Position numbers and translations under genes: made by a program. The notes beneath the pieces are model-generated. The model saw nothing but the letters and a program-made list of their open reading frames with translations, ran no database searches and was not told the origin of the DNA. Below are positions 32,900 through 54,172 of a stretch of DNA of 64,000 nucleotides, piece by piece (within the stretch, counting starts at the first letter, position 1; every line of letters begins with the position of its first letter). This DNA is from an uncultured virus (IMG/VR IMGVR_UViG_3300035698_035306) (taxonomy: Duplodnaviria; Heunggongvirae; Uroviricota; Caudoviricetes): the IMG/VR virus record IMGVR_UViG_3300035698_035306; one strand, 5' to 3'.

Positions 32900-34000
32900 A
32901 TGCATAAAACAATATTATTAGCAATCACAGGAGGCATCGCAGCATACAAAGCTGCAGATGTTATTTCTGGATTAAGAGCAAAAGGACATACAGTACATGT
33001 AATTACTACTGACAGTGCGCTTAAGTTTATTACACCTACAGTAATTGGTGCAATATCAGGAGGTCAATACATCACAGATGAAGACCCAAATCATATCATG
33101 CACATTAAGTTAGCACAAGAATGTGATTTATTTATGTGTCTACCTTGCACAGCCAATACAATGGCTAAATTTGCAAATGGTATGGCAGATAACTTCGTAA
33201 CTTCAACGTTCCTAGCACTGCCGAAAGATACGCCTAAAATTATTTGTCCTGCAATGAATACAAAGATGTGGACTAATTTAATAACTCAACAGAATTATTG
33301 GAAACTTAAATCATTTGAAAATCTTACAATGATAGACCCAGTTAAAGGTTTATTAGCTTGTGGAGATACAGGAATGGGGAAACTTCCTAAGCCTAGAGCA
33401 ATTGTTAATGAAGTTCATGGCATCTTAGATGACAGTCCTGCATGGGAATGGCCATTAGTATTAAGACCAGTAGGAACTACTAATGATAGCTATAGTTTTC
33501 TTCATATTGACTTAAACAGAGATGTTGAATTACCAATCTATCCTCATGTTGGAGCTTTTGGTGTTAAACGTAGACATGACAAACATAGAGGTGTAGACTT
33601 ATATGCTCCTGAAGGAACATTAGTCACTCCTGTCGAAGACGGTGTCGTAGTAATAGTAAGACCTTGGACAGGTAAAGACGCCAATTGTCCTTGGTGGGAA
33701 GATACTGAAGCAATTGGAATATTAGGTGAAAGTGGTTTAGTTTATTATGGAGAACTACGAGTTAATAATAATCTTAAACCAGGTATGAAAGTAGTCAAAG
33801 GAACTACGTGGTTAGGTAGAGTTATAAAAGTTCTTAAGAAAGATAAAGGTCGTCCAATGAGCATGTTACACCTTGAATTAAGAGAACCAGGATTTCTTAA
33901 GAATATTGATAAAGATTGGGAATTTAATCTGCCAAAAGGTTTACTTGACCCAACTCCCTATCTTAAGAGATGCATCGAAAAGTTGCCAAAAGCTTCATAA
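32900..34000 (+). CDS. coaC: phosphopantothenoylcysteine decarboxylase (CoaC, HFCD flavoprotein) fused to C-terminal M23 peptidase domain
   Basis: ITGGIAAYKA, HIKLA, PCTANTMAK, PAMNTKMW, LACGDTGMGKL; then HRGVDLYAPEGT, YGEL, MLHLEL, DPTPYL. Confidence 0.88.
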   Translation: MHKTILLAITGGIAAYKAADVISGLRAKGHTVHVITTDSALKFITPTVIGAISGGQYITDEDPNHIMHIKLAQECDLFMCLPCTANTMAKFANGMADNFVTSTFLALPKDTPKIICPAMNTKMWTNLITQQNYWKLKSFENLTMIDPVKGLLACGDTGMGKLPKPRAIVNEVHGILDDSPAWEWPLVLRPVGTTNDSYSFLHIDLNRDVELPIYPHVGAFGVKRRHDKHRGVDLYAPEGTLVTPVEDGVVVIVRPWTGKDANCPWWEDTEAIGILGESGLVYYGELRVNNNLKPGMKVVKGTTWLGRVIKVLKKDKGRPMSMLHLELREPGFLKNIDKDWEFNLPKGLLDPTPYLKRCIEKLPKAS

Positions 34001-34024
34001 TTGCGAAAAGTTTATGTACTTTTA
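33994..34024 (+). promoter_or_regulatory. Bacteroidota-type promoter (TGCG class, degenerate -33)
   Basis: TTCA-N19-TACTTTTA then acttgtaattaa. Confidence 0.65.
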
Positions 34025-34053
34025 ACTTGTAATTAACTTAAAGAAATAAAAAG

Positions 34054-34500
34054 ATGAATTTAGAATTTGAATTATTAAGATTTAAAATGTGGCTAGTTTA
34101 TGCTACAAACAGATTATACAAGAATATATCTTGGACTTATCAGTATAAAAGTATTTATGACTTGGTAAAAAAAGACAGTGAAGGTTTAGTAAATGAAGTT
34201 AGGTCGAAATTTACGTGGACTGCACTTCCAATTTTATTATTCGTGTTTTTAATCCTGGATTTATTACAGACTGCAGTAGTAGGTTTCGTAGTAGGTGTCG
34301 GTTGGGTTGCAATAAACTATTGGTGTCATGGTGATTTTGGAATTGAATCAACTACAGAAGTTGCAATTACCTTTTGGTATGCATGGCTGATAATGGGTAC
34401 TGTATTCTCAATCGTTATATTATTCTGGCAATTCGTATTCAATATAATTATAGAGATAGGCCGATTCATTAAATTTGCGTATTTGAAAATCAAAAGATAA
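34054..34500 (+). CDS. hypothetical membrane protein
   Basis: two to three hydrophobic segments. Confidence 0.7.
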   Translation: MNLEFELLRFKMWLVYATNRLYKNISWTYQYKSIYDLVKKDSEGLVNEVRSKFTWTALPILLFVFLILDLLQTAVVGFVVGVGWVAINYWCHGDFGIESTTEVAITFWYAWLIMGTVFSIVILFWQFVFNIIIEIGRFIKFAYLKIKR

Positions 34501-34687
34501 AAATGTACACTCCTGAAAAACTACACGAACACTTAACTGGATTGTTAATCAACGTTACAGTAGAAAGTGTTAGAATAAGATTTGCAAGAGAACTAAAATT
34601 CGCAAGAAAACAAAAGAAACAAATCCAATATGGTGATGATTTATACAAATACGTATACAGCAGAACTGTTAAACATATACTAGATTT

Positions 34688-35371
34688 ATGAAAATTTTAA
34701 TCACATCAGGTGGGACCAAAGAATATATTGATGATGTAAGAGTATTAACAAATATCTCATCAGGAGCTCTTGGTGCTAAAATAGCTGAAAGCTTTACATG
34801 GGACAATCACGAAGTACATTACGTCTATACAAAAGGCTCAGTATTACCACGCAACGATTTTAAAGATAAGACAAGGCTATTCTTCCATGTAGTTAAAGAT
34901 GTTGTATCACTTGTCCACAAGACTGCAGAGCTTATTCCAGAAATGGATGTTATAATTCATGCAATGGCAGTAAGTGATTTTGGATTTTCTCCTTGTAAAG
35001 AGAAGCTTAAGTCTAACAGTACTGAAGACTTTATTAATTCACTAAGAGACAGAATTACAGTTAACCCTAAGGTATTATCACATATGCGTGATTGGAACCC
35101 TAAAGCAGTCCTTATCAGCTTTAAGTTTGAAGTAGGTAAGACTAATGAAGACTTACTTGATATTGCTCGTAAATCTCTAATAGCTAATCGATGTGATATT
35201 GTAGTTGCAAATGATAAGACTGAGATGGTTAAAGAAGGTAAGCATATCGCATATATTCAAGATGTTTACAAGAACGTTATTAAATGTGATAGTAAAGAAA
35301 ACATTGCAAGACAACTTGTAAGAATCGTAAATGAAACAAAAGGAAATAGAACCATAGAAATATCAAGATGA
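34688..35371 (+). CDS. coaB: phosphopantothenate-cysteine ligase (stand-alone CoaB)
   Basis: ITSGGTKEYIDDVRVLTNISSG, HAMAVSDF, NPKVL, SFKFE, VVAND. Confidence 0.92.
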   Translation: MKILITSGGTKEYIDDVRVLTNISSGALGAKIAESFTWDNHEVHYVYTKGSVLPRNDFKDKTRLFFHVVKDVVSLVHKTAELIPEMDVIIHAMAVSDFGFSPCKEKLKSNSTEDFINSLRDRITVNPKVLSHMRDWNPKAVLISFKFEVGKTNEDLLDIARKSLIANRCDIVVANDKTEMVKEGKHIAYIQDVYKNVIKCDSKENIARQLVRIVNETKGNRTIEISR

Positions 35372-36950
35372 AAAAGCCCGAAATTATAACGAAAGTTAAA
35401 AAGTTTTATGACTATCTGTCATGTCAAGAATACTTAGCCGAAAAATACAAAGACGACGAAAGATTTGATGAAGAAAAGTTATGGGACCACCTATGTGAGT
35501 ACTCAGATGTACATAATGATTCATTCTTCCATATGAATACTGACACTCGTTTTACTGGTGATGATACTATTGCTTATGCAAAAGAAATATTCCAGAAAGA
35601 ATTTGGTATAGAAGGTGAAACTGATATTAAATTTTATGTATCTTGGTAATGGAGAACGACAAATTAACTACAATAGAAACAGAAAAGCTCATTTCATTAT
35701 TGTCATGGGCTTATACTGCAGGTTGGAAAGATAGCGCTAAAGTTATCTTAGAAAGTGCACCTGATGAGAGTATTATGATAAATTTATTCAAAGAAAAACT
35801 CAAACCATAATGGACGAATATTACGAATACTACAACGATGGTAAAGAAGTATCTCAAGCAAAGAAAATCGTATTTGATATCATAAGCGAGCTCAATGGAA
35901 GGCGTGGTATGGGTATCGAATCAGCTGATGATGAAATTCAAGAAGAAATACTCGAAACTTTAATTGAATTAACTGAAAATAACATAAAGGAAAAAACAAA
36001 TCTTGAAGATGTTAAAGAGGTAATTAAATCATATGATAAAGATAATGGATATGGGTGTGGTTCATTAAGAAGCGTACTATATAACAAAGTACAAAGTATT
36101 AACGCATTTAGAGACGGCTCATAATGGGAAGTAGAATAATTCCATTTGAACCAGATGAGATTTGTGATGAATGTGGTGCTAAAGGAGCATTTGATTTTAT
36201 GGGAGATTGTTACTGCCCGAAATGTGCAAAGAAATTCGTCTATGACGAAGAAGATAGTGACGAAATAAAAGAATAATATGACACATATTGAAGAATATAA
36301 AAGGACTGGTACTTGTGCAGGTTGGTCTGAAGAGCATGCAAAGCAATCTGCAGATTGGAGTGTTAACTTAATGTTCAAAGATGTACATGGTAAAACTTCT
36401 ATAGTTGAACAAGTTGCACTTAAATTAGATGCATTATTAGCATATAATGATGTAGTTCATATACCTGAAGAAGAAGTACTTGAGAAAGCACAAGAAATTA
36501 TCAATCATATTAAAAACCAATATTAATGGACATAATTACAGCATATAGAGATTTTATTTTAGGATTAATTGAACTTCCAACAAGGGTTCATGTCCTAAAG
36601 AGAATGATAAACAAGGGTGAAGGTGCAGAAGCTGAATATGGTTTCTACTCTACAAAGTTAGGTATTGGCCCAGTAATTGATGTCGATGTAAGGATTGATG
36701 ATGTTTATAGCAGGTCAGCTAAAATTATCGTTAAATTTGATAAGTATGAGAAAGAATACATCTACTACATCAGTAGACATTTCTCACCTGAAACTCAATT
36801 AGAAAAATTTGACCAAAAACTTTCTGATGTGATTAACGATACTCTTATTAAAGATGAGAGATGGGAATTACTTGATGAACTTGAAAAGAAAGAAAAACAA
36901 CGATTCTTTGGTAGATTCAAAGGTGGTACATTTAAAATTATTCAAAGCGA

Positions 36951-37301
36951 ATGAGAAATTTAGTTTTAATATTATTCTTAATACTCGCAATGACTTGCAA
37001 TTCACAAGTAATGCAAGTTCGTACACCCTATGACACTACTGCTAATATCACTATAGTTGCTGTTCATGATAAGTCTGAAGCAGATATGATTGTGATGATA
37101 GTAGATAAAAAATCTCAGTGTGGTCATGATGTATACTGGAAACTAACATCAAAGAATAAAAGGAGATATGACTACACAATTCGATTCGTAACCAGAAATG
37201 ATAAACATGATTTAAAGATTTACTTTACAATCAACTCTGATGAACCCCGTGTCATGAGTGAATATCTCAAATCTGGTTTAGAACAATATAAACCAAAATA
37301 A
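36951..37301 (+). CDS. secreted protein, DUF6150-like
   Basis: signal peptide; repeated V.....AD/DL.IYF pattern. Confidence 0.4.
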   Translation: MRNLVLILFLILAMTCNSQVMQVRTPYDTTANITIVAVHDKSEADMIVMIVDKKSQCGHDVYWKLTSKNKRRYDYTIRFVTRNDKHDLKIYFTINSDEPRVMSEYLKSGLEQYKPK

Positions 37302-37303
37302 AC

Positions 37304-37334
37304 TTTGGGGTGTCAAACAAATTTGATACTTTAG
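37304..37334 (+). promoter_or_regulatory. Bacteroidota-type promoter (GTCA class), near-leaderless
   Basis: TTTG-N19-TACTTTAG; ATG 37342. Confidence 0.85.
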
Positions 37335-37341
37335 CACTATT

Positions 37342-38511
37342 ATGAAACAGATACTATTAAATAGAACCGATTTTAAAGAGCAAGTTTTCAAAAGAGACAA
37401 TCATACATGTCTATTTTGTGACAAACCAGCAGTCGATGCACATCATATAATCGATAGGTCATTATGGAGTGACGGAGGTTATTATGTTGATAATGGTGCA
37501 TCATTATGTACTGAACATCACTTAGCAGCTGAAAAGACTCTTATATCTGCACATAACTTAAGGCAGTTAGCAGGTATTGATAATGCAATTTACCCCCAAA
37601 ACTTATCAAGAAATGAATTTGTTGTAGACTATGACAAATGGGGTAACCCTATCTTAAAGAATGGTAGACGTTTAAAAGGTTACTTATTCTATAAAGATAA
37701 TGTTCAGAAGATGCTTAAACAAACAATAGAACATGGTGCATTTGATAAGCCATTTGATATGTTAGTAGATAAGTACCCTCGTACCTATCACTTACTTAAT
37801 TCTCCAGGAACAACTTCAGATGATAGAATTGCAAAGACTTGTAATAAAGTTCTTACTCAAGGCAACGTTATTACTGAAAAGTTAGATGGTGAGAATACTT
37901 CTATGAGTGAATATGGATTATTTGCAAGAAGTCGTACTGAACCTACTAAAAATCCTTGGGCCCAGTGGCTTAAGCAACGTTGGGAAAGTATCAAGAGAGA
38001 TTTAAAAGACTTTGACCTTGAAATATGCGGTGAGAATATGTACGGAGAACATTCGATCGTTTACTCTGGCTTACAAGAACACTTCTATGTATTTGGAATG
38101 AGGAATATGAAGCACGATGTATTTTTAAGTTGGGAAGAAACTGAATACTTTGCAGAACTATTTGACTTTCAGATGGCCCCAGTATTAATGAAGTGTGATG
38201 GATTAACATACGAAGAATTAGTAGATAATATTGATTTATTTATGAGTCAACCATCAGAACTAAATGATAGTAAGTACTGGACTACACCTAAAGAAGGTAT
38301 AGTAATAAGAATCAAAGATGAATTTCCAAATGACATGTTCTATAACTCCGTATACAAATATGTAAGAGCAAAACATGTTAAGACTGGAGAACACTGGGCT
38401 AAGAACTGGCACAGAGCATATTTACATCACGAATTAGAAAGATTACAACATGACAAATTCCCTCAAATATTCGAAGATAGAGTACGAGAAGGACTAATAA
38501 CATTATCATGA
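37342..38511 (+). CDS. HNH domain fused to ATP-dependent RNA/DNA ligase domain
   Basis: N-term RDNHTCLFC..DAHH..NGASLC..HH; ligase KYPRTYHL..SPG, motif I EKLDGEN, GEN, FYVF, EGIVIR, KYVR. Confidence 0.88.
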   Translation: MKQILLNRTDFKEQVFKRDNHTCLFCDKPAVDAHHIIDRSLWSDGGYYVDNGASLCTEHHLAAEKTLISAHNLRQLAGIDNAIYPQNLSRNEFVVDYDKWGNPILKNGRRLKGYLFYKDNVQKMLKQTIEHGAFDKPFDMLVDKYPRTYHLLNSPGTTSDDRIAKTCNKVLTQGNVITEKLDGENTSMSEYGLFARSRTEPTKNPWAQWLKQRWESIKRDLKDFDLEICGENMYGEHSIVYSGLQEHFYVFGMRNMKHDVFLSWEETEYFAELFDFQMAPVLMKCDGLTYEELVDNIDLFMSQPSELNDSKYWTTPKEGIVIRIKDEFPNDMFYNSVYKYVRAKHVKTGEHWAKNWHRAYLHHELERLQHDKFPQIFEDRVREGLITLS

Positions 38512-39617
38512 TAGATTTTATAAAACATATACAGACCGTAATTCCTGAAATTATACCTTATTTTCATGCGATGAAAGGTTGTCAACAAGACAAGACATAT
38601 CATCCAGAAGGAGATGTTTGGATTCATACTAAACTTGTCCTGGAAGAATTTTATAATGAATGGGATTTATATACACCGAAGGCAAGAAAGATAATGGCTT
38701 ACGCTATCATATTTCATGACATAGGGAAACCTTATTGTTCTGAAAAGATTGATGGTCATATTCGTTCACATGGACATTCAAGAATTGGCTATCATATTGC
38801 ATTAGAATTACTAGATAAGGCATTAGCAGCTGGTGATATTGAATACGATGACATGCTTGAAATTGCAAATCTTGTTTTATTTCATGGTAAGCCACCTTGG
38901 GTATCTGAAAAGTCAACAAGAGATGCTGAATATGAAGTTATTAAATTGAGTCAAGATTGTCATATTTGGTTACTTTGGAAGCTATCTACATATGATATCA
39001 AAGGTAGAACTGCTAAAGATGTACCTGAAATGCTCGAGAAGGTTGAATATTTCATGATGTTAGCTGAAGAATTAAACTGTCTCCATTTAGATTATAAATT
39101 CTACAATGACTACAATAAATTTGGTTACTTAGTTAAACACAATTATCACCATACTGACCAAGCTTACGATGATAGTAAAGGTCATGTTTATCTAATGGTT
39201 GGATTACCAGGTACAGGAAAAGATACTTACATTAAAGAGAACTTATCAATATGGCCTATAGTCAGCTTAGATGATATTAGAGCTGAACTTAAAATCAAAC
39301 CGACCGGTAATCAAGGTAAAGTTATTCAAGCAGCTAAAGAGAAAGCTAAAGTGTTTATGAGAGAAGGTGCAACCTTTACTTGGAATGCTACAAACACATC
39401 TAAGTTAATTAGAGATGGTTTGATTTCTTTATTCACTCAATATAACTATCGCATACATATTCATTATATTCATAATACGTTTGATAAAATCCTCGAACAG
39501 AACAAACAAAGAGAAGCTCAGGTACCTGAAAAGGTTATCAAGAAACTATTTAGAAATATTGATATCCCTAAAAACTCTGAGGCCCATATTGTAGTTCACA
39601 TTGATAAAACGAAATAA
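38508..39617 (+). CDS. HD-Pnk: HD phosphoesterase + P-loop polynucleotide kinase
   Basis: HPEGDVWIHT, FHDIGKP; GLPGTGKDT, SLDDIR, WNATN; ATGA overlap with the ligase. Confidence 0.88.
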   Translation: MIDFIKHIQTVIPEIIPYFHAMKGCQQDKTYHPEGDVWIHTKLVLEEFYNEWDLYTPKARKIMAYAIIFHDIGKPYCSEKIDGHIRSHGHSRIGYHIALELLDKALAAGDIEYDDMLEIANLVLFHGKPPWVSEKSTRDAEYEVIKLSQDCHIWLLWKLSTYDIKGRTAKDVPEMLEKVEYFMMLAEELNCLHLDYKFYNDYNKFGYLVKHNYHHTDQAYDDSKGHVYLMVGLPGTGKDTYIKENLSIWPIVSLDDIRAELKIKPTGNQGKVIQAAKEKAKVFMREGATFTWNATNTSKLIRDGLISLFTQYNYRIHIHYIHNTFDKILEQNKQREAQVPEKVIKKLFRNIDIPKNSEAHIVVHIDKTK

Positions 39618-39629
39618 ACTGTGGAATAC

Positions 39630-39660
39630 TTTGGAACCTGAAAATTAATTATTACTTTAG
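39630..39660 (+). promoter_or_regulatory. Bacteroidota-type promoter (CTGA class)
   Basis: TTTG-N19-TACTTTAG. Confidence 0.85.
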
Positions 39661-39684
39661 TACCAAACAATAAAACTTAGAATC

Positions 39685-40365
39685 ATGTATTTATTTTATG
39701 ACACAGAAACAAATGGTCTACCTAAAAACGCATCACTATCTCATGTTGATGTTGATAACTGGCCTCGATTAGTTTCAATTACATGGGTTCTTCAAGATGA
39801 AGAGAAGAATGTTGTTGAAGAAGAATCATTCATAATCAAACCTGATGGCTGGACTATCCCACAAAGACTTACAGATTATGTCCACGGAATATCTGATGAA
39901 CAAGCTGAAAAAGAAGGTGTACCTATCAAAGTAGTTCTAAACGAATTTATGAAAGCTTTGTGGAGAGCAGACTATGTTGTAGGTCATAATATCAGATTTG
40001 ACCGTAAAGTAGTTGCAGCAGAGATGTACAGGTATTTATTTGGTTATCATTATGATGAAGTACTTTATGGCACTCGCTTTAGAGATACAATGCACGCTTC
40101 TCGCTTACACGTTAAAGCTCTTAATAAAAAAGGTGGAATTAAATTCCCTAAGTTACAAGAAATGTACGTAAAGATTTTTGGTTCTGAATTTGAAAATGCT
40201 CACGACGCTACTGCAGATGTTCATGCAACTGCAGACTGCTTCTGGAAATTAGATGAAATGGGAATTATAGACGATTACTATTTAACACATAGCGATTTGT
40301 CAGAAAAGTTTAAACCAAGAGCTGAAATTAAGATAGATATATTCAACTTACCAGAAGTAGAATAG
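39685..40365 (+). CDS. DEDDh 3'-5' exonuclease (DnaQ-like)
   Basis: YDTETNG, GHNIRFD, DTM, AHDATADV. Confidence 0.9.
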   Translation: MYLFYDTETNGLPKNASLSHVDVDNWPRLVSITWVLQDEEKNVVEEESFIIKPDGWTIPQRLTDYVHGISDEQAEKEGVPIKVVLNEFMKALWRADYVVGHNIRFDRKVVAAEMYRYLFGYHYDEVLYGTRFRDTMHASRLHVKALNKKGGIKFPKLQEMYVKIFGSEFENAHDATADVHATADCFWKLDEMGIIDDYYLTHSDLSEKFKPRAEIKIDIFNLPEVE

Positions 40366-40395
40366 AAAGTTTATTGCGTTTAATCTGAGGAATAC

Positions 40396-40426
40396 TTTGG
40401 TTCCTGAAGTTTTATTGATACTTTAG
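40396..40426 (+). promoter_or_regulatory. Bacteroidota-type promoter (CTGA class)
   Basis: TTTG-N19-TACTTTAG then tcttgtaattaa. Confidence 0.85.
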
Positions 40427-40449
40427 TCTTGTAATTAAAAGAAAACGAT

Positions 40450-40935
40450 ATGACATCAATAGACCTTTATACAGACGCATCTTACGCACAGCACAAAGCA
40501 CCTAAACATTTCGGAATAGGAATGTTCATGATTGACTACGCTGATGATGAAAAAGAATACCAACATGGTCAAAGAGTACAATTCGCTCATATCACAAATA
40601 AAATCAAGCAAAAATATCAACACAAAATCAAAGGTAACCTCACTTTATTTGAATTACATGCTATCGTTGAAGGTATTAGATGGACTATTAAACAAACAAA
40701 TAAGAGAGAAAGTATCGAAGAGATTAGAATTTATACTGACAGTTTAAATGTCGTAGAATGCTATCACGGTTTAGTAGAACACCCGATGTTTACAGGTTAT
40801 ACCAAATCTTTAAAACACCAAATCGAAGGTATTGAAAAAACTAACAATCTTAAAATTACATTATCACATATCAAAGCACACTGCGGAGTATATGGAAACA
40901 CTAAAGCTGACAAATTAGCTAAAAAGAGAAACTAA
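40450..40935 (+). CDS. rnhA: ribonuclease HI
   Basis: YTDAS, ELHAI, IYTDS, HIKAHCG..GN..ADKLAK. Confidence 0.88.
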   Translation: MTSIDLYTDASYAQHKAPKHFGIGMFMIDYADDEKEYQHGQRVQFAHITNKIKQKYQHKIKGNLTLFELHAIVEGIRWTIKQTNKRESIEEIRIYTDSLNVVECYHGLVEHPMFTGYTKSLKHQIEGIEKTNNLKITLSHIKAHCGVYGNTKADKLAKKRN

Positions 40936-40938
40936 AGC

Positions 40939-40969
40939 TTTTAATTTGCGAATAATTTAATTAGATTTG
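40939..40969 (+). promoter_or_regulatory. Bacteroidota-type promoter (TGCG class), probably leaderless
   Basis: TTTT-N19-TAGATTTG; ATG 40973. Confidence 0.7.
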
Positions 40970-40972
40970 AAT

Positions 40973-41731
40973 ATGACAAAAATAGATTCAACTGTTGTAG
41001 TAACAGACATCAGAAATTTCACTGGACTTTCTATCCTCTTTGAAGATAGAGGTAGTGATATTTTCATGGATTTTATGGAAGACTATTATGAACATCACAT
41101 GCTTCTTGCAAAAGAAATTAGCACTGAAGATGTTTATGTAAGTACTACAGGTGATGGCATTATTACCATTTTTATGGGTGAAAATCATGCATTTGAAGGT
41201 TATGCTTATGCTCTTTCAATGAATAGAGTACTTACTGAAATATGTGGTAAATTTAGCAAAGATGCAGGTGTAAAATTGTCATTTGGAATTGGAGCTGATT
41301 CAGGTTTCATTAAAAAAATTGATACAAGTAAGAGAGGTATCAGTATAAACACATATCTAGGCCCTGTAATTAACAGGACTGCAAGAATTGAAAGTCTTAC
41401 AAAGGGCTATCACTTTACTAATATGGCAATAGGTGGAAACCTTTACAAGTTAATCCTATCTTTAATCGTACCTGATTCAATAGAAATATTTGAAAACGTT
41501 ACAAATTATGATGACTTACTTGAAGATAACCCAAGATTAGTATCAAAGAGTAAAAGGTTATTAGTTTATTATGGCGGAACAAATGTTCTTAAAGGTTTAG
41601 AAAGTGAAACACTTCCAATCTTTAGATTAATTAAAAAGCTCGCTGATAACGATTTCTACTTTTGGAGAACAATCATTACATTAATTGGCAAAGAAAAAGC
41701 TAAAAAAATATTAAGCTTAGACGAAGAATGA
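40973..41731 (+). CDS. class III nucleotide (adenylate/guanylate-type) cyclase
   Basis: TDIRNFT, TGDG, FGIGADSG, TYLGPVINRTARIE. Confidence 0.88.
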   Translation: MTKIDSTVVVTDIRNFTGLSILFEDRGSDIFMDFMEDYYEHHMLLAKEISTEDVYVSTTGDGIITIFMGENHAFEGYAYALSMNRVLTEICGKFSKDAGVKLSFGIGADSGFIKKIDTSKRGISINTYLGPVINRTARIESLTKGYHFTNMAIGGNLYKLILSLIVPDSIEIFENVTNYDDLLEDNPRLVSKSKRLLVYYGGTNVLKGLESETLPIFRLIKKLADNDFYFWRTIITLIGKEKAKKILSLDEE

Positions 41732-42249: not shown

Positions 42250-42252
42250 AAT

Positions 42253-46050: not shown

Positions 46051-46056
46051 CTTACT

Positions 46057-46383
46057 ATGAAAAGATTCTTACTGATTTTATTTATATTTGCGACAAGTTT
46101 TACATTTGCTCAAACATATGAACTAGATAAATCTGGTGATATTAAGCTTGATAGTACATTGACAACAATTGTTAATGACATCTATTATGACGAAATGTAC
46201 TCAGATTCAAACAACATTGAATATTATAACAAAAGATTAAAAGATGTGATGTTTAAATATTACTTTGTAAAAGATAATTCTGAAGCTATTGAAGTACAGA
46301 ATTGGATTTCAACATCATTTAAACCTGCTCTTGATAATGCAATAAAACAAAGGCAGGAATTTATTAACAAACAAAATAATTAA
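46057..46383 (+). CDS. small secreted protein
   Basis: Sec signal MKRFLLILFIFATSFTFA-Q. Confidence 0.7.
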   Translation: MKRFLLILFIFATSFTFAQTYELDKSGDIKLDSTLTTIVNDIYYDEMYSDSNNIEYYNKRLKDVMFKYYFVKDNSEAIEVQNWISTSFKPALDNAIKQRQEFINKQNN

Positions 46384-46385
46384 TT

Positions 46386-49298
46386 ATGAAAAAACTCTTA
46401 GTAATATTCTTATTCTTTCTTATAAGTCTTACTGGATTTTCACAAGGAACTGATTGTGCAAGTGCTGACCCATTTTGTACAGGAACTACTTATGATTTCC
46501 CATTATCAACAAGTACTACAGCTCAGACTGGGCCTGATTACGATTGTTTACTCACACAACCTAACCCAGTATGGTACTATCTACAAATAGACCAACCCGG
46601 CGATATCACAATTACGATGAATGCCGGTAGTGATATTGATTTTGTAGCATGGGGACCATTTGCATCTCAAGCTGTTATGTGTAGTAATCTTACTTCAGCT
46701 AATGTTGTAGATTGTAGTTTCTCAATAGCATCATCAGAAGACTGTGACATAACAGGAGCTTTACCTGGTGAATTTTATATGATGATGATAACAAACTACG
46801 CAGGTATAACACAGAATGTCACATTTTCACAAACAAGTGGATTAGGAAGTACAGACTGTTCTATTATATGCGAAGTCAATGCAGGTACTGACCAATCAAT
46901 TTGTATTGGAGACCAAGCAACTTTAGGAGGTTCGCCTGTTTATAATGGTGGTTTGCAACCTGTCACTTACCTTTGGGACAATGCTGCTACTATAACTACA
47001 CTTGCAACTGATTCGACACCTACTGTAGAACCCTTAATTACAACAACTTATACAGTTACTATGACTACTGATGACGGTTGCACGTCTACTGATGATGTTC
47101 TCATTACAGTGATAGACCCTACTGCTAGTTTTATATCAAGTGTAGACCAGTGCTTAACTGGGAACTTATTTACTTTTACAAATACAGGAGATACTGGACC
47201 AGGAATTACATGGGACTGGACATTACCTAATTCAAATACATTAACATCTACTAATGAAAATGTTGTTAACGTATCATGGGCTAATCCAGGAACTTATATA
47301 ATAACCCAAACTGTTACTATAGGTACATGTACAGATGATAATACAGATATAATAGAAGTATTTGAAATGCCAACAGTAACTATGTCTACAGTAGATGAGA
47401 TATGTGCAGGAGCTTGTGATGGAAGTGCTACTGCAAATCCATTAAACGGCACTCCTGGTTATACTTATCAATGGTTAGGAATAGCTGATATCACACAAAC
47501 TGTGAATGCTTTATGTGCTAACAATTACTTCGTAACAGTAACAGACTTAAATGGTTGCACAGCAACTAATGCTGGTACTGTAAGTTCTGCACAACCTATA
47601 GATATTGATAATGTTACAGTGACTGATGTTCTTTGTAATGGTGATAATACTGGTGGATTTTTAATACAAGCTTCAGGTGGATGCACTCCTATTACTTATA
47701 ATAATGGAATTAGCAATACGACTGGCATATTTACTAACTTACTTGCTGGGAGTTACGATGTAACGATTACTGATTGTAATTCATGCTCAGTTATTGAAAC
47801 TGTAATCGTAGATGAACCTGAGTTTCCTTTAAGTGCAATCATGACACATACAGATTTACTTTGTTTTGATGATAATTTAGGAACAGCTACTGCAAATGTC
47901 TCAGGTGGAACAATTGGTTATACTTATCAATGGTTACCTTCTGTAGGTATAGCAGGTACAATTATAAATGTACCAGCTGGGAATTATCAAGTTACTATAA
48001 CTGATGCTAACAATTGTCAAATCTTTGATAATGTAGAAGTTAATACACCATCTGAAGTATTTCTTGCAGTTTCACAAAGTGGTGAAATTGTATGTTTCAA
48101 CCAGGACGTTGAAATAAATGCATCGACAACAGGTGGAGTAGCTCCTTATATTTATTACATTAATGGTGTTTACACTGCTATGCCGTTTGTGACCAATCCA
48201 ACAGGATTTGAAACTTACATTATATATGCTGAAGATATCAATGGCTGTACAAGTAATATTGAAGTTGTTGACTTAGATGTCTTTGACAATTTGAATTTTT
48301 CTATCGTGTCAACACCTGCAGATGTTTGTTTAGGTGACCCTGTTACTATTTCATGTATCACATCAGGTGGAACTGGTGGTCCATATCAAATATCATTTAA
48401 CGGGAATATTGTTAATGTTCCTTTTACTTACTGGCCAAATCTCAATGAATCTGTAACTTTAACAGCTACTGATTACTGTTCTACAGCTTCATCTACTGTC
48501 GATATTGATGTTCATATATTACCTACACCTCAATTTTCTACTGATATTATACATGGTTGTGAACCACTTACAGTACACTTCGATGCATATTCAGCTTTCC
48601 CAAATGAAACATATAGATGGGTATTTGGAGATGAATCACAGGGGTATGGTATGACAGCTACTCATGAATTTGATAATTATGGTATGTATGACATTACTCT
48701 TATGGTTACTGATGAATACGGCTGTTCTAATAACATCAACTACACTAATTACATTACTGTATATGAGAACCCTGACGCAAGATTTTATGTAACACCTTCT
48801 AATGCAAGTATAATTGACCCAGTAATACAATTTGATAATAATAGCCAGAATAATTACTGGAATTATTGGACTTTTGGTGATGGAGATACATCAATGACAC
48901 TTAATCCAGTCCATACTTATAATGAAGTTGGAGATTATATGGTAGAATTAAAAGTTGTATCAATTCATAATTGTAGAGATTCAGCTATGTCACAAATTAT
49001 AATAACTGACATCACTACAGTATACTTTGCTTCTGCATTTAGTCCAGATGGTGATGGCATTAATGATTTCTTTGGTGCAGTCGGTGAGAATATAACACCA
49101 ACTGGATTTGGCTTATGTATTTATGATAGATGGGGAGAAGTTATCTTCGAAAGCTCAGACATTGATAATAAATGGGATGGTAAAGCAAAGAATGGAATGA
49201 AGACTGTTCAAATTGGAGTTTATACTTACACTTGTAATTTTATAGATGTATACGGTGTTGCAAGAGAATACGCTGGAACAGTAACAGTTATAAGATAA
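46386..49298 (+). CDS. T9SS type-B substrate: SprB repeats + PKD domains + gliding-motility CTD
   Basis: signal peptide; GGT.GYTYQW..G.Y.VT.TD.N.C repeats; W.FGD..H...G.Y...L.V PKD; CTD FSPDGDGINDFF..IYDRWGE..WDG..GVY.Y..GTVTVIR. Confidence 0.92.
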   Translation: MKKLLVIFLFFLISLTGFSQGTDCASADPFCTGTTYDFPLSTSTTAQTGPDYDCLLTQPNPVWYYLQIDQPGDITITMNAGSDIDFVAWGPFASQAVMCSNLTSANVVDCSFSIASSEDCDITGALPGEFYMMMITNYAGITQNVTFSQTSGLGSTDCSIICEVNAGTDQSICIGDQATLGGSPVYNGGLQPVTYLWDNAATITTLATDSTPTVEPLITTTYTVTMTTDDGCTSTDDVLITVIDPTASFISSVDQCLTGNLFTFTNTGDTGPGITWDWTLPNSNTLTSTNENVVNVSWANPGTYIITQTVTIGTCTDDNTDIIEVFEMPTVTMSTVDEICAGACDGSATANPLNGTPGYTYQWLGIADITQTVNALCANNYFVTVTDLNGCTATNAGTVSSAQPIDIDNVTVTDVLCNGDNTGGFLIQASGGCTPITYNNGISNTTGIFTNLLAGSYDVTITDCNSCSVIETVIVDEPEFPLSAIMTHTDLLCFDDNLGTATANVSGGTIGYTYQWLPSVGIAGTIINVPAGNYQVTITDANNCQIFDNVEVNTPSEVFLAVSQSGEIVCFNQDVEINASTTGGVAPYIYYINGVYTAMPFVTNPTGFETYIIYAEDINGCTSNIEVVDLDVFDNLNFSIVSTPADVCLGDPVTISCITSGGTGGPYQISFNGNIVNVPFTYWPNLNESVTLTATDYCSTASSTVDIDVHILPTPQFSTDIIHGCEPLTVHFDAYSAFPNETYRWVFGDESQGYGMTATHEFDNYGMYDITLMVTDEYGCSNNINYTNYITVYENPDARFYVTPSNASIIDPVIQFDNNSQNNYWNYWTFGDGDTSMTLNPVHTYNEVGDYMVELKVVSIHNCRDSAMSQIIITDITTVYFASAFSPDGDGINDFFGAVGENITPTGFGLCIYDRWGEVIFESSDIDNKWDGKAKNGMKTVQIGVYTYTCNFIDVYGVAREYAGTVTVIR

Positions 49299-49723
49299 TG
49301 AATGAAATAATAGTAAAATCAAACCAGAAGCTTACACATAAAGCATGTGTTGAGAAAATTGGTATAAGTAGAATCGACGGTAAAACAATTTATAAAATCG
49401 ATTTGAACTTAATTCTAGATAAAACTAGAGCAATTTCAGAAGAATTAGGTACTAAGAATTTTGAAATAATTACAGATTTAGAAACTGAAAAACAAACAAT
49501 ATAATGCAAACGTATAATATAAAAACGTACACGAACATTGATTTAGCAGGACAAGGTACTGCTTTAGTTATTCACAGATTTGATAATGAGTGCCCAGATA
49601 TTAAAGCTGGTGATACTATTATTACTGATAATGGTACTTTTGAGATTACAAAACTGGAACAATTTAAAAAATCATTTGATAGACCTGGAGACAACGTAAC
49701 TGTCTTAGTTAAAAGAAAATAAT

Positions 49724-50668
49724 ATGAACATACCAAAAGAAATATTAGTAAGAGTCCATGCCGGTAAAAACCCTTTATCGTTTATGACGTATGTCGATGA
49801 AGAAGGTAAAATTAGAAGTGAATATTCATGGAATGGATGGGGACAAAAACAATTAAAGAAACCTGTAACAAATATACCACGAGAAGGATTTAAAATAAGT
49901 GGACTAACTAAACGTTCATCAGATTGGTTTGGAAGTGGTCGTACTTTATTTTATATTGACCACCCAGAAGGTTATCACTTTGAAATAACATCAGATAACC
50001 TTTTAGCTTTAATGGGACACCATGACATTATAGGAGGTGTTATTCAGGGTAAGTTATTACTTGTATGGGACGGAAGAAAGATGTCTTTAATAACTGCAGA
50101 ATCTGATGAGTACAAGAAGTATACTGTACAAACAAGTGTAATTGCAAGTGGTACAGTTAAAATGAGTGAGCTTATCCCTGGTCATGTATATTCTAATAGA
50201 GATGGAAATGATAAGAATACTTATTATGGCAGCAAATATCTGATTAGTGCAACACCTGGTTATAAAAGTAGAGAACATGATGGCTTCACATCATATTACT
50301 ATTCGTATAGACATAATCGTCATACACATTATCCTGTAATTGAAGTAAGAATAGAAAAAGTACATGTATTTTCAGGATATAGTTATAATGGCGAAAAACA
50401 TACATTCAATACTTGTTTAACAAAGAAGTGCTATGATACAGGTAAAACAAAATCAGTTTCAACAATAGAAGAATTGAAAGGTACTTTAGCAAAAGATAAA
50501 CATTGGATGGGCCATAGTCGTTATGCAATAGAAATGTTTAATACAAGACCTTCTAAAGATGAGATAGCTAAATACTTAGACAAAGAGTCAGATGAATGTC
50601 AGACAATGATAAAACGACTCGATAGTAAAGAACATAAATCATGTGAAATAATTTTAAAGAAAACATAA
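49724..50668 (+). CDS. hypothetical phage protein, probable paralog of 23298-24242
   Basis: NIPREGFKI, HPEG..FEITSDNL, IIGGVIQG. Confidence 0.65.
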   Translation: MNIPKEILVRVHAGKNPLSFMTYVDEEGKIRSEYSWNGWGQKQLKKPVTNIPREGFKISGLTKRSSDWFGSGRTLFYIDHPEGYHFEITSDNLLALMGHHDIIGGVIQGKLLLVWDGRKMSLITAESDEYKKYTVQTSVIASGTVKMSELIPGHVYSNRDGNDKNTYYGSKYLISATPGYKSREHDGFTSYYYSYRHNRHTHYPVIEVRIEKVHVFSGYSYNGEKHTFNTCLTKKCYDTGKTKSVSTIEELKGTLAKDKHWMGHSRYAIEMFNTRPSKDEIAKYLDKESDECQTMIKRLDSKEHKSCEIILKKT

Positions 50669-51132
50669 TGGAACAATACGACAGTAGACCTGATACTCTT
50701 AAGCACAAATTAAGAGTACAAACATTAATAACAGATTTCTGTATGCAGATGTCTGATATTGCAAAAGAACATGACAATTCTAAACTTGAGGAACCTGAAA
50801 AGTCAATCTTCGACAAGATGACACCCAGATTAGCAAAGTTAGAATATGGCTCAGATGAGTATAAAGAATCACTTAAAGAATTAGGTGTAGCACTTGACCA
50901 TCATTATAAAGAGAACTCACATCATCCAGAACATAATGCTTTTGGTATTAATGGTATGAACCTTTTTGATATAATTGAGATGTTCATGGACTGGAAAGCA
51001 GCTGGAGAAAGACATAATACAGGTTGTATCTTTAAGAGTATTGAAGTTAATAAGAATAGATTCAATATGTCAGACCAATTAGTAGAAATATTTAAGAATA
51101 CAGCTGATAAACTTGGATGGGAGCCTAAATAA
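50668..51132 (+). CDS. HD-like protein (DUF5662)
   Basis: HK..V, HDNSK, HHYKENSHHPEH, EM..DW.A. Confidence 0.75.
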   Translation: MEQYDSRPDTLKHKLRVQTLITDFCMQMSDIAKEHDNSKLEEPEKSIFDKMTPRLAKLEYGSDEYKESLKELGVALDHHYKENSHHPEHNAFGINGMNLFDIIEMFMDWKAAGERHNTGCIFKSIEVNKNRFNMSDQLVEIFKNTADKLGWEPK

Positions 51133-51549
51133 ATGGAAAATACAGTACATTATTATAAAAGTGCACTACAAACAAATGCACTTTTATTAGAATTAGCAAG
51201 ATTCGAATTAAATATAGTCTCAACAGATGACAACATTATGCATGACATGAAGTTATTTTCAGTTGGTTCATATGACTATATTGCTTGCAGAGATAAAGAG
51301 AACAACATCTTAGGCTATATGAAGTTTTATGAGACTGAATACAATGCAGAAGAATGTATATGGATTGAAAAAGCTTTTGTTAGACCTGAGTATCGAAAGA
51401 AAGGTGTTTATTCTAAAATGTATAAGCGATTACGTTCAGAACATACTTTACCAATTATGTCAGGTGTACTTCCTACAAACAAAAATATGATTGCAATTAA
51501 GGAAAAACAAGGAGCTAAAGTTTTATCTATAATTTATAAAATAGCTTAA
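51133..51549 (+). CDS. GNAT acetyltransferase
   Basis: FVRPEYRKKGVYS acetyl-CoA motif A; N..M. Confidence 0.85.
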   Translation: MENTVHYYKSALQTNALLLELARFELNIVSTDDNIMHDMKLFSVGSYDYIACRDKENNILGYMKFYETEYNAEECIWIEKAFVRPEYRKKGVYSKMYKRLRSEHTLPIMSGVLPTNKNMIAIKEKQGAKVLSIIYKIA

Positions 51550-51552
51550 TAC

Positions 51553-51583
51553 TTTTAAATTGCGTAATAAATTAATACTTTTA
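51553..51583 (+). promoter_or_regulatory. Bacteroidota-type promoter (TGCG class), probably leaderless
   Basis: TTTT-N19-TACTTTTA; ATG 51588; 16-nt perfect direct repeat 51546-51561/51572-51587. Confidence 0.7.
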
Positions 51584-51587
51584 AATT

Positions 51588-52058
51588 ATGATAACGAATA
51601 GTAAATATGTATTCTTTTGGGCTGGAGAGTTCTCCAACTGGCACAACGCTAAAATTGAATACAAGGGTGAAAAGTTTGCAAACACAGAGCAAGCTTATAT
51701 GTGGGAAAAAGCCCTCCATTTTGATGACTATGAAATTGCAGAACTTATTTTAAATGAACCTAATCCTAAAGAGAACAAGAAATTAGGTAGACAAGTAAAA
51801 GGATTTAATGCAGCTGAATGGTTAAATGTATCGTTTGATTTAATGCTTGAAATTAATCGAGCTAAATATAGTCAACACGAAAGTCTTAAATGGCAATTGA
51901 TTAATACAGGTGATAGATTACTTGTAGAAGCAAGCCCATTTGATGAAATATGGGGTATAGGATTAACAGCTGCAGAAGCAGTTAATACACCTGAAGAAGA
52001 ATGGCCTGGAATGAACCTTCTAGGTAAATGTTTAACTAAATTAAGAGGAGAAATTTAA
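51588..52058 (+). CDS. NADAR (YbiA-like) family protein
   Basis: FSNW, EQAYM..KA..F.D, K.LGR.V, K.SQ, LVEASP.D.IWGIG, GMNLLG. Confidence 0.92.
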   Translation: MITNSKYVFFWAGEFSNWHNAKIEYKGEKFANTEQAYMWEKALHFDDYEIAELILNEPNPKENKKLGRQVKGFNAAEWLNVSFDLMLEINRAKYSQHESLKWQLINTGDRLLVEASPFDEIWGIGLTAAEAVNTPEEEWPGMNLLGKCLTKLRGEI

Positions 52059-52657
52059 TGCGATATGTAAGTATAGATACAGAGACTACAGGTCTCGATA
52101 AAGAAAGATGCCAATTACTTTCAATTGGTGCAGTTATAGAAGATACTGAGAATCCTCTTCCACTTGAAGAAATGCCTCAGTTCCATTGTATTATTGTACA
52201 TGATTTCATCGAAGGTCAACCCTTTGCACTGAACATGAATAAAGAGATAATTGAAATACTTGGCCGTTATGCTGTTGCAAGTTATCAACAAAAGGCCTTA
52301 ATTGCTCAAGAAGTTCTTGATGAAAAAGGTATTTATCTTCTTCACATGCATGAAGTTGCAAACAAATTCTTAGACTTTATTGATGATAATAACATGCCAA
52401 GGAAATTTGTTGTTGCAGGTAAGAACTATAATGCATTTGACAGAATATTCTTATCAAATGTTCCTAACTGGGATAGTCACTTTCCTATTCATAGAAGAGT
52501 ACTTGACCCTGCTACATCACTTACCAAAACTACAGATGAAGTACCACCTAACTTAGAAGAATGTTTGAAAAGATGCGGTATTATAAAAGGAATAGCACAT
52601 GATGCAGTAGAAGATGCATTTGATGTTGTTCAAGTTTTAAGACACGTAATAAAATAA
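52058..52657 (+). CDS. DEDDh exonuclease
   Basis: IDTETTGLD, AGKN..FD..FL, HR.LD, HDAVEDA. Confidence 0.88.
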   Translation: MRYVSIDTETTGLDKERCQLLSIGAVIEDTENPLPLEEMPQFHCIIVHDFIEGQPFALNMNKEIIEILGRYAVASYQQKALIAQEVLDEKGIYLLHMHEVANKFLDFIDDNNMPRKFVVAGKNYNAFDRIFLSNVPNWDSHFPIHRRVLDPATSLTKTTDEVPPNLEECLKRCGIIKGIAHDAVEDAFDVVQVLRHVIK

Positions 52658-52661
52658 AAAT

Positions 52662-53273
52662 ATGAAATTAGTTGGAATAACTGGAAGTATCGGTGCAGGT
52701 AAGAGTTACATTGGTAATTTAATCGGAGAACTAGGTGGATATGTCTATAATATGGATGACCATGTTAAATATTTACAAGAAACTGACCCATGGCTTAGAG
52801 AAGAAATGATTGAAATGTTCGGGGCAGATATCTATACAGATGAAGGCCTTGACAGAAAGAAAGTCGGTTCAATTATATTTCAAGACCCAGCTAAATTGAA
52901 GAAGATTGAAGATATGATAAGAGGTCCAATTGAAAAAGACCTCTATTGTACTGCTTACCATGTAAAACATACACTGAAATATAACGTAATGTTCATCGAG
53001 AATGCAATACTTTACGAAACAGGACAGTATAAACGTATGGACCATGTTTTAATGGTTAATGCACCTCAAAAACTTAGAATGGAAAGAGTTACAGAAAAGC
53101 GTGGAATGTCTGAAGAAGATTTCAAACAAAGAGATGCTATTCAAATTGACTTTCCAACAAAAGCAAATGCAATGACTAGTGCAGGTATTGAATGGACTCA
53201 TATATGGAATGCGCCTGATTTACCAAACCTTAAGAAAATGATTAAAGATATTTATATTAAATTTTCAAAGTAA
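52662..53273 (+). CDS. coaE: dephospho-CoA kinase
   Basis: VGITGSIGAGKS, D, LDRKKVG.IIF.D, AILYE, V.AP...R..R...R....R...Q. Confidence 0.88.
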   Translation: MKLVGITGSIGAGKSYIGNLIGELGGYVYNMDDHVKYLQETDPWLREEMIEMFGADIYTDEGLDRKKVGSIIFQDPAKLKKIEDMIRGPIEKDLYCTAYHVKHTLKYNVMFIENAILYETGQYKRMDHVLMVNAPQKLRMERVTEKRGMSEEDFKQRDAIQIDFPTKANAMTSAGIEWTHIWNAPDLPNLKKMIKDIYIKFSK

Positions 53274-54172
53274 TGAGTGCAAAAATGAAAGTAATACAAG
53301 AGACTGTAGATGAAGTATTTAACGATGCATTTGGTAGTACACCTCTTACTAAACGACTTGAAGATATTGAAGGTGAAGCAAGAGAGCTTTGTCAATTCAC
53401 AGACCTTAAGAATCTGAAAGAAGAAGCAGGAGACTTACTTGCAACAACATTGATGCTTTGTAATGAAGCAGGATGGGATGCAGAAGAATTAGTTTATAAT
53501 ACTTTGAAAAAAATCAATCGACGTATAGACCAATATAAAAGCCTTGGGCGTAAGACCAATGTTGCAATATTCGGTGGTGCTTTTAATCCTATCACTCTTG
53601 GTCATATTGAAATGGCTAAACTTGTATTAAATGCAAGTAAATGGGCTGATGAGGTTTGGTTAATGCCTACGAACATTCATATGTTTGGCAAGGATATGTT
53701 ACCATTTAAAGAACGTTATGAGATGTGTAAGATTGCTGCTCAGGCAGACGGAAGGATTAAAGTATGTGATTATGAACACAAACACAATCTGAAAGGTGAG
53801 ACATATCATCTACTGAATAAGATGGTACATGATTCTGAACTTGAGAATTATCGATTTGGTTTTATAGTTGGACAAGATAACGCAAATACACTTGACACTT
53901 GGTATAATGCTGATGAAGTAATTAAACTTGATGTTAAGTTTATTGTAGTTCCAAGAAAAGGAGTGCCGCGTGACCCAAATGTAACATGGTATCTACAGAA
54001 GCCTCATCAGTTCATAGCAGATGATGATAAAGTTAAATATGAAATATCTTCAACCATGGTTCGAACTGCTCTAAAGTCAGGTGACGAACCCACAATTAAA
54101 GATTGTATGGACTCAAACGTTACAAATTATATTTACGATAAGTTACTCTACCAAGATGAAAGCTCAATGTAA
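53273..54172 (+). CDS. nadD: MazG-like NTP pyrophosphatase fused to NadD/NMNAT nucleotidyltransferase
   Basis: E..E..EEAGDLL...K..RR (MazG); IFGGAFNPITLGH, R..M, T, GQDN...W, ISST.VR (NadD). Confidence 0.85.
   Translation: MSAKMKVIQETVDEVFNDAFGSTPLTKRLEDIEGEARELCQFTDLKNLKEEAGDLLATTLMLCNEAGWDAEELVYNTLKKINRRIDQYKSLGRKTNVAIFGGAFNPITLGHIEMAKLVLNASKWADEVWLMPTNIHMFGKDMLPFKERYEMCKIAAQADGRIKVCDYEHKHNLKGETYHLLNKMVHDSELENYRFGFIVGQDNANTLDTWYNADEVIKLDVKFIVVPRKGVPRDPNVTWYLQKPHQFIADDDKVKYEISSTMVRTALKSGDEPTIKDCMDSNVTNYIYDKLLYQDESSM

Follow-up and report, generated by a model that had tools for sequence, protein, structure and literature searches.

Why should a phage carry genes for the last steps of coenzyme A (CoA) synthesis, and how much of that route does it encode? 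The question is raised by IMG/VR record IMGVR_UViG_3300035698_035306, an uncultured virus represented here by a stretch of 64,000 nucleotides (64 kb; referred to below as the window). A first-pass annotation had placed three late CoA genes in this stretch, encoding phosphopantothenoylcysteine decarboxylase (CoaC), phosphopantothenate-cysteine ligase (CoaB) and dephospho-CoA kinase (CoaE), and had offered an adenylyltransferase coupled to CoaE as a possible source of the step between CoaC and CoaE, phosphopantetheine adenylyltransferase (PPAT; CoaD). Overall, our analysis identifies a real and conserved phage gene set whose pathway is partial within the window, rejects the proposal for CoaD, and locates the newest element of the locus in a remodelled M23 domain that is fused to CoaC.

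The three late CoA genes themselves lie on the + strand where they had been annotated, with intact motifs as judged by Pfam, NCBIfam and relatives of solved structure in PDB. The CoaC domain, an HFCD flavoprotein, spans 32900..33424 and constitutes residues 1-175 of a 366-residue open reading frame (ORF; 32900-34000). It matches Pfam Flavoprotein (PF02441) over residues 3-173 (E 1.1e-32, 113 bits), and it scores 180 bits with the NCBIfam model coaC_strep and 167.7 bits with coaBC_dfp, a model that expects both halves (CoaB and CoaC), compared to 19.8 bits for CypD, a decarboxylase of ribosomally synthesized and post-translationally modified peptides. When its solved relatives are ranked, CoaBC from M. 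smegmatis (6tgv), human PPCDC (1qzu) and AtHAL3a come before EpiD and MrsD. Alignment to 6tgv and 1qzu shows that the active-site His (in HIMHIK), the PxMNxxMW motif (as CPAMNTKMW) and the substrate-clamp Cys (in LACGDTGMG) are all kept, and we take their roles to be those given in the AtHAL3a and Dfp literature. In the plant and human enzymes, the clamp Cys together with the active-site His marks true phosphopantothenoylcysteine decarboxylases, which complete the reduction to phosphopantetheine.

The stand-alone CoaB (34688..35371, + strand) is similarly identified by Pfam, NCBIfam and a PDB relative. Specifically, it matches Pfam DFP (PF04127; E 1.5e-30, 106.8 bits), and the closest solved structure is the stand-alone S. 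pneumoniae protein 2gk4. An N-terminal GGT.E.ID.VR..N.SSG motif, an AVSDF motif and the Lys of a KFE motif, the roles of which we assume to be the established ones, are invariant across 23 homologues. CoaE (52662..53273, + strand) passes the TIGR00152 cut-off (76 bits vs 65.55), contains the P-loop GITGSIGAGKS, and retrieves dephospho-CoA kinases or CoA synthases in all 15 of its PDB matches (top 2if2, E 2.6e-26).

With respect to the step between CoaC and CoaE, the stop codon of CoaE does overlap the next start as TAATG, confirming the translational coupling described earlier. The coupled gene (53273..54172, + strand), which had been described as a T/HxGH adenylyltransferase of the CoaD superfamily, encodes a MazG-NadD fusion (MazG, residues 34-85; NadD, residues 94-296) in which the nicotinate/nicotinamide mononucleotide adenylyltransferase assignment holds along the whole enzyme. 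Its score is 122.1 bits against TIGR00482 (NadD; cut-off 112.45, model positions 1-194) vs 27.4 bits against TIGR01510 (coaD; cut-off 103.3, model positions 1-65 only). Fifteen of its 16 PDB matches are named NadD or nicotinate mononucleotide adenylyltransferase, the remaining one being uncharacterised, and none is a PPAT. NadD from B. subtilis (1kam) aligns full length to residues 94-294, including the WY and SSTxxR stretches. The enzyme is 29% identical over 217 residues to NadD of relative G005; with the CoaD-like protein of relative G011 it has in common only a 23-residue N-terminal nucleotide-binding motif.

Could a NadD-type enzyme nonetheless double as a PPAT, which would place four consecutive steps in the window? 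We regard this as very improbable. The idea draws on the coupling to CoaE, on the nucleotidyltransferase superfamily common to both enzymes, and on position, as the gene fills the same slot after CoaE as the CoaD-like gene in G011 and several other viral loci. It is opposed by the distance between the two scores, by the full-length alignment with B. subtilis NadD through the WY and SSTxxR stretches, and by the single short motif that is common to this enzyme and G011 CoaD. Moreover, G011 has retained a NadD-type gene as well as its separate CoaD-like gene next to CoaE, and a full NadD-type gene adjoins CoaE in none of 20 other viral loci, which makes the CoaE-NadD coupling of the window unusual. 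CoaD itself is absent from the 64-kb window in all six frames. A frameshifted coaD was likewise rejected, as tblastn with the CoaD-like proteins of three relatives returned only the NadD N-terminal motif (E 0.004). The 53273 enzyme is a predicted NadD, and would serve NAD+ synthesis, not CoA. In the portion of PMC11662467 that we consulted, nadD in huge phages, including the 735-kb relative, is described as belonging to phage NAD+ synthesis.

The most novel feature of the locus had been missing from the first account of the CoaC ORF, which is in fact a two-domain fusion. Downstream of the decarboxylase, 33425..34000 (+ strand, approximately residues 180-361) encodes a zinc domain with the M23/LytM fold. 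The window's own domain scores under the Pfam cut-off (23.3 vs 28.7), and its aligned homologues match Pfam Peptidase_M23 in 11 of 11 cases (best E 2.9e-13). Foldseek with an AlphaFold (AF2) model of the domain (predicted local distance difference test, pLDDT, 83) retrieved exclusively M23/LytM proteins, with probability 1.0 to many M23 chains. The zinc ligands H54 and D58 (HxGxD) and H149 are retained; the positions of the catalytic His residues are substituted by Glu110 (YGE for YxH) and Met147 (MLH for HxH). Here the roles of the ligands and of the two catalytic positions, namely the first His of HxH and the YxH-type His, are presumed to be those known from the LytM literature. This remodelled site is strongly conserved: R49, H54, G56, D58, T82, G83, W91, T94, Y108 and V136 are invariant in 150 of 150 family representatives, and E110 (149/150), M147 (148/150) and H149 (149/150) are nearly so. 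A profile search of 1.84 billion representatives yielded 2219 members at E <= 0.001, of which 474 reach E <= 1e-30, and in the closest protein-atlas clusters 60-83% of the members with a record are viral. The domain belongs to a phage-centred family, and its probable role is that of a hydrolase linked to small molecules or nucleotides, or of a binding module, and not that of a cell-wall peptidase.

Is this gene set peculiar to one contig, or is it inherited as a unit? Homologues of CoaB number 464 at E <= 0.001, and contigs of 100-736 kb encode many of them. When CoaB was used as a single query protein, viral contigs gave no match; with an alignment as query, IMG/VR yielded 16 loci, whose contigs measure 6.5-461 kb. 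About 14 of these loci are independent, given the near-identical pairs L004/L005 and L010/L011. CoaC is present in 14 of the 16 whole records, either adjacent to CoaB or within ~5 kb of it, and was not found in the 96%-complete G004 or in one fragment. The M23-like profile matches 11 records, with one copy each and always beside CoaC, which corresponds to 11 of the 14 CoaC-bearing records and neither of the two CoaC-less ones; in L007, L013 and L014 the domain is a separate ORF. CoaE occurs in four of the 16 (G003, G004, G007 and G011). Four records also contain a CoaD-like protein of at least 90 bits, with G004 (130.7) above the 103.3-bit cut-off and G011 (94.9), G007 and G012 (both 90.9) under it. 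NadD-type genes are strongly matched in three. Neither type I nor type III pantothenate kinase (PanK) was detected in any of the 16; the type III family was detected in the Bacteroides control genome. Among the five records that are at least 89% complete, CoaC is found in four, CoaE in three and CoaD-like in two.

All four late steps coincide in G011 (CoaB, CoaC, M23-like and a CoaE-CoaD operon) and in G007, which has the same set; the order in G011 is Nudix, DUF3307, CoaE, CoaD, and the last two genes overlap. In a separate scan for viral CoaE, a CoaD-like gene directly adjoins CoaE in 10 of 20 loci. A metagenome scan with CoaE added no new relative, as the single contig recovered (17.9 kb) encodes a CoaE of 100% identity. 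Phage CoaEs are 24-33% identical to that of the window, compared to 45-65% for phage CoaB and CoaC. Co-occurrence of these genes in relatives, which the first-pass annotation had put forward as a check, is therefore confirmed for one half of the set but not for the other: coaB and coaC are tightly correlated, whereas coaE and coaD are patchy. We conclude that coaB-coaC(-M23) is a stable, co-inherited module and that coaE-coaD is a second, patchier one. A phage carrier protein was also considered as a general rationale for the genes and rejected, as ACP-like genes occur in only three of 13 relatives (two over the cut-off) and phosphopantetheinyl transferase (PPTase) in none of the 13. In a separate observation, the CoaD of the 429-kb relative G004 (L115; G004:C1:290000-306000), whose genome is without CoaC and the M23-like domain, is a 386-residue protein with a C-terminal extension of ~230 residues that matches no known family, and its neighbours are R2K ATP-grasp, PARP, cREC, PhoH and PIN genes.

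The origin of the module was addressed by comparison with 80 cellular loci, sampled as one genome per prokaryotic species. In 79 of them CoaB is at most 37% identical over full length; CoaC lies immediately 5' as in fused CoaBC in 67 of these 79, and the M23-like domain in none. The sole locus of the 80 with the CoaC, M23-like and CoaB trio (48-53% identity) is L034, a 97-kb contig binned as a Cellvibrionaceae metagenome-assembled genome (MAG). Its CoaB groups inside the phage clade, and the contig probably belongs to a huge phage and was assigned to the bacterial MAG in error. In a quick maximum-likelihood IQ-TREE phylogeny of 92 rows (short matches L107, L108, L110, L112 and L113 dropped), which is midpoint-rooted and has a sampling biased by the peptide patterns used, all 18 phage-type CoaBs fall on one side of a branch with a Shimodaira-Hasegawa-like approximate likelihood ratio (SH-aLRT) support of 99. 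Their sister (support 94) is a split CoaB from a Eubacteriaceae MAG, and the sequence from Bacteroides is distant. The earlier suggestion that the split coaB and coaC were not recently captured from the host is thus borne out by the single phage clade, the low cellular identity and the distance of Bacteroides CoaBC. Because the phage CoaBs form one clade at 45-65% identity, long purifying selection is indicated.

In terms of function, we lean towards the view that these genes sustain or deregulate the supply of 4'-phosphopantetheine and CoA during infection. In such a scheme CoaB would ligate cysteine to 4'-phosphopantothenate, the CoaC domain would decarboxylate the product to 4'-phosphopantetheine, and CoaE would phosphorylate dephospho-CoA. 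With steps 2, 3 and 5 in its own hands, the phage could maintain or increase the supply of 4'-phosphopantetheine and CoA through a long, resource-hungry infection, and this supply would be independent of host CoaBC. Step 1 (PanK) and, as far as the window is concerned, step 4 (CoaD) would be supplied by the host or encoded elsewhere in the phage genome. Type III PanK, the family seen in the Bacteroides control genome, is known to be insensitive to feedback inhibition by CoA. Further down the route, the consulted text of PMC7794376 reports that in mycobacteria, the source of the one CoaBC whose regulation has been studied, CoA and acyl-CoAs inhibit the CoaB activity of this enzyme and CoA inhibits CoaD. 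Such inhibition would be a reason for phages to hold copies of exactly these steps. By this analogy, the presence of CoaB and CoaC, the addition of CoaD in relatives and the consistent absence of PanK would fit a bypass of downstream control.

Several observations weigh against this proposal. The feedback argument is built on a mycobacterial enzyme and not one from Bacteroidota, and the CoaD and PanK status of the window phage was judged on 64 kb only. We infer enzymatic activity from sequence, as we do the direction of any effect on the CoA pool and the role of the M23-like domain. The CoaC domain falls below the NCBIfam equivalog cut-offs (180 vs 261.4 bits for coaC_strep; 167.7 vs 219.7 for coaBC_dfp), as does CoaB (172.6 vs 265 for PRK06732; 164.2 vs 217.2 for coaB_strep), and because of these scores both are classed as divergent family members. 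Two records of 91-100% completeness lack CoaE, and G004 (96% complete) contains CoaB, CoaD and CoaE but no CoaC. Since CoaE and CoaD are patchy and the phage CoaEs are so dissimilar, the CoA "pathway" is not one co-inherited unit. Finally, when viral contigs were scanned with the M23-like profile, 11 of the 37 loci retrieved were those with CoaC/CoaB; the other 26 lack both genes within 5 kb, and for this reason the link of the domain to CoA chemistry may be incidental.

The fusion partners of the M23-like family bear on a different possibility, namely that the CoaC-M23-CoaB module makes or processes something besides a CoA precursor, such as a cysteine-derived thiol, or phosphopantetheine that is used to cap RNA 5' ends or to load a phage carrier protein, with the M23-derived zinc site adding a hydrolytic or thiol-binding step. 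In a Pfam scan of 42 long family members, the domain is fused to CoaC in P0133, P0136 and P0215, and P0263 joins M23, CoaC and CoaB, in that order, in a single protein of 565 residues; among the others, three proteins carry Nudix, one NADAR and one a semialdehyde dehydrogenase. These fusions, together with a methyltransferase fusion described below, count in favour of this reading, as do the strictly conserved but remodelled active site and the way in which the domain tracks CoaC among the related records. PPAT can moreover cap RNA with phosphopantetheine, according to the consulted part of PMC10761072, and ACP-like genes are present in two to three of the 13 relatives. We nevertheless consider this reading unlikely, as CoaB and CoaC keep all canonical motifs and match CoA enzymes far above peptide decarboxylases, PPTase is missing from all 13 relatives, and the majority of M23-like genes lie away from CoaB and CoaC. 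By BLAST, the CoaC/CoaB part is absent from 143 of the 149 listed members of the family. Co-folding of CoaB with the M23-like domain scored 0.00 with controls not run, and was used neither for nor against binding. As a side observation, positions 3798-6065 of L167, a 179-kb viral contig, hold a second and different pairing, in which a divergent 388-residue DFP/CoaB-like protein is encoded directly 5' of an M23-like-methyltransferase fusion.

What, then, surrounds these genes, and on what kind of genome do they reside? The window is 33% G+C with a positive GC skew throughout, and the + strand carries 122 of its 131 non-overlapping ORFs of at least 50 residues. In a Pfam scan of 127 window ORFs the majority are without any family. 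PHROG matches supply the phage markers: a virion structural protein is encoded at 30267-30917 and a phage RNA ligase (E 5.7e-87), whose N-terminus is HNH-like, at 37342-38511, and to these are added a polynucleotide-kinase-like HD and P-loop protein and a primase/helicase-like protein. In GenBank, DNA similarity to phages is limited to short stretches, 67-78% identical, of the uncultured huge phages LR756501 and LR756503 (735 kb) and LR756500 (462 kb), and relatives of the window are confined to IMG/VR contigs of 51-461 kb and these GenBank huge phages. On the strength of the phage markers and of DNA similarity to huge phages only, the window is a huge-phage fragment, viral rather than cellular, as the first-pass annotation had supposed. 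The 64-kb window contains no tRNA genes. Against PHROGs at 1e-5, neither CoaC nor the M23-like domain has a match, nor do CoaE and NadD, and CoaB falls in an unannotated family only; TANGO2/NRDE (PF05742) has no match in the 127 ORFs scanned. The + strand at 46386-49298 encodes a 970-residue protein in which Pfam recognises SprB repeats, PKD domains and the CHU_C sorting domain of type IX secretion. It is a surface protein of Bacteroidota type, and from it we take the host to be probably a member of the Bacteroidota.

Close to the module, two small, tightly packed ORFs of 148 and 62 residues (34054..34691, + strand) lie between CoaC-M23 and CoaB, the second overlapping the CoaB start; neither has a Pfam or NCBIfam match, and tblastn at 1e-5 detected no counterpart of either at the 16 related loci. 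The RNA ligase and an HD phosphohydrolase/P-loop kinase form an RNA-repair pair by Pfam and PHROG (37342..39617, + strand) 2 kb 3' of CoaB. In relative L009 the same pair (7361-9564; 58-60% identity by tblastn) is directly 5' of CoaB, and is thus syntenic with the CoA genes. Upstream of CoaE, also on the + strand and by Pfam and NCBIfam, are a GNAT protein (51133-51549), a NADAR protein (51588-52058; 153 bits) and, directly 5', an oligoribonuclease-like exonuclease of the DEDD/RNase T type (52058-52657). The latter two, preceding CoaE and following GNAT and DUF5662, have the appearance of a small nucleotide/ADP-ribose-processing island. Elsewhere on the + strand are an M42 glutamyl-aminopeptidase-family protein (16012-17076; 248 bits) and a DUF3228 protein (24214-24882; 177 bits), and a canonical M23 peptidase, separate from the remodelled domain, is found at 22056-22892 (103.6 bits). 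A 371-residue, CysQ-like protein of the inositol-monophosphatase family with an N-terminal extension of ~95 residues (61005-62120, + strand; 164 bits, cut-off 228.8) was considered as a partner in CoA turnover. CysQ is a 3'(2'),5'-bisphosphate nucleotidase, and 3'-phosphoadenosine 5'-phosphate (pAp) is the by-product of phosphopantetheinyl transfer from CoA and of the use of 3'-phosphoadenosine 5'-phosphosulfate (PAPS). With a counterpart in none of the 16 related records, the gene is outside any conserved set and was set aside.

These surroundings raise the possibility of counter-defence, in which the genes would rebuild CoA or 4'-phosphopantetheine after host immunity has destroyed or sequestered it, by analogy with NAD+ reconstitution pathways (NARPs). 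CoaC and CoaB adjoin the RNA-ligase and HD-kinase repair pair, CoaE adjoins NADAR, the exonuclease and MazG-NadD, and in relatives CoaD and CoaE stand beside Nudix, PARP, cREC, PIN and PhoH. The M23-like family points in the same direction. In 25 of the 26 loci without CoaC or CoaB (one duplicate dropped; 115 same-strand ORFs of at least 100 residues), the neighbours include cREC, Lar, a phosphoribosyltransferase, a PRA-PH/MazG-like pyrophosphohydrolase, RNase H, an Rv2179c-like exoribonuclease, a T4-type RNA ligase and a CCA/poly(A) polymerase, as well as DUF3307 and Acb1 in two loci each. Of these, Acb1, Lar and the RNA-repair genes beside stand-alone M23-like genes are the ones that speak for counter-defence. 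We still judge this explanation doubtful. Huge-phage genomes pack accessory genes densely, which makes neighbourhood weak evidence, and without step 1 and (in the window) step 4 the phage alone could not rebuild CoA from breakdown products. A full-text literature search, to which subscription-only papers were outside scope, found no paper on a CoA-depleting anti-phage defence, and the consulted portions of two broad comparisons, of jumbo phages and of viral NAD/ADP-ribose systems (PMC7824862 and PMC9503650), carry no mention of CoA synthesis.

Support of CoA supply thus remains the reading that we prefer for CoaB, CoaC and CoaE. Taken as a whole, the M23-like family is a general component of huge phages, encoded in neighbourhoods concerned with nucleotides, RNA repair and counter-defence; one of its subclades is attached to CoaC, and its tie to CoA is only partial. 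More speculatively, and with a rather low likelihood, the M23-derived domain could be a new phage enzyme or a thiol- or phosphate-binding module that, alongside CoaC and CoaB, works on an intermediate derived from cysteine. Huge phages would then possess a modified phosphopantetheine/CoA route, possibly one that restores a cofactor attacked by host defence, and the wider family with its Nudix, NADAR and methyltransferase fusions would be a general tool in conflicts over nucleotide cofactors.

Phage cofactor synthesis has been an active topic since NAD+ reconstitution pathways were described, and CoA would be the second central cofactor made in part by huge phages. Steps 2 and 3 are encoded nearly always, steps 4 and 5 in some records and step 1 in none, a pattern that points to the flux-limiting or regulating steps in hosts that have a CoA-insensitive type III PanK. 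The remodelled M23 domain, being compact and strongly conserved, offers handles for biochemistry in its fusions to CoaC, CoaC-CoaB, Nudix and NADAR. Should the genes prove to be ordinary auxiliary metabolic genes, the analysis still corrects annotation, as the coupled enzyme is NadD and not CoaD, and the M23-like domain is not a lysin. Our literature search, within the same scope as above, found no description of phage coaB or coaC or of a CoaC-M23 fusion. The consulted part of a snow-virome study (PMC11097641) lists coaD and coaE as abundant viral auxiliary genes of unknown purpose; to these the window adds coaB, coaC and the CoaC-M23 fusion, the functions of which are predicted.

How does this locus compare with known systems? 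The sets for NAD+ synthesis in jumbo phages, as presented in the consulted part of PMC11662467, are likewise partial cofactor pathways, and nadD is also found in the window. Among cellular enzymes, the split CoaB and CoaC of Bacillota (streptococcal and enterococcal) are the nearest match, as they too are separate genes, the strep-type NCBIfam models score highest and 2gk4 is the closest CoaB structure. The phage enzymes differ from them in being only ~30-37% identical, in scoring under the equivalog cut-offs, in being phage-borne and in having an extra M23-like domain on CoaC. Bifunctional CoaBC (Dfp; M. smegmatis 6tgv, E. coli 1u7u) has its two reactions and its motifs in common with the phage pair; in the phage, however, the halves are split, and the M23-like domain follows CoaC at the point where CoaB follows in CoaBC. 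Bacteroides CoaBC is 28% identical to the phage CoaB. With respect to the M23-like domain, the fold and the HxxxD...H zinc triad are common to M23/LytM peptidases such as LytM, lysostaphin and Csd3. Compared to the active peptidases, however, the phage domain has both catalytic His residues replaced, is fused to a cytoplasmic enzyme and contains additional invariant features (R49, TG, WW and T94). The degenerate LytM factors EnvC, NlpD and SpoIIQ lack ligands, whereas the phage domain keeps its zinc ligands. The phage M23-like domain is therefore neither a standard active M23 peptidase nor a ligand-less degenerate LytM factor.

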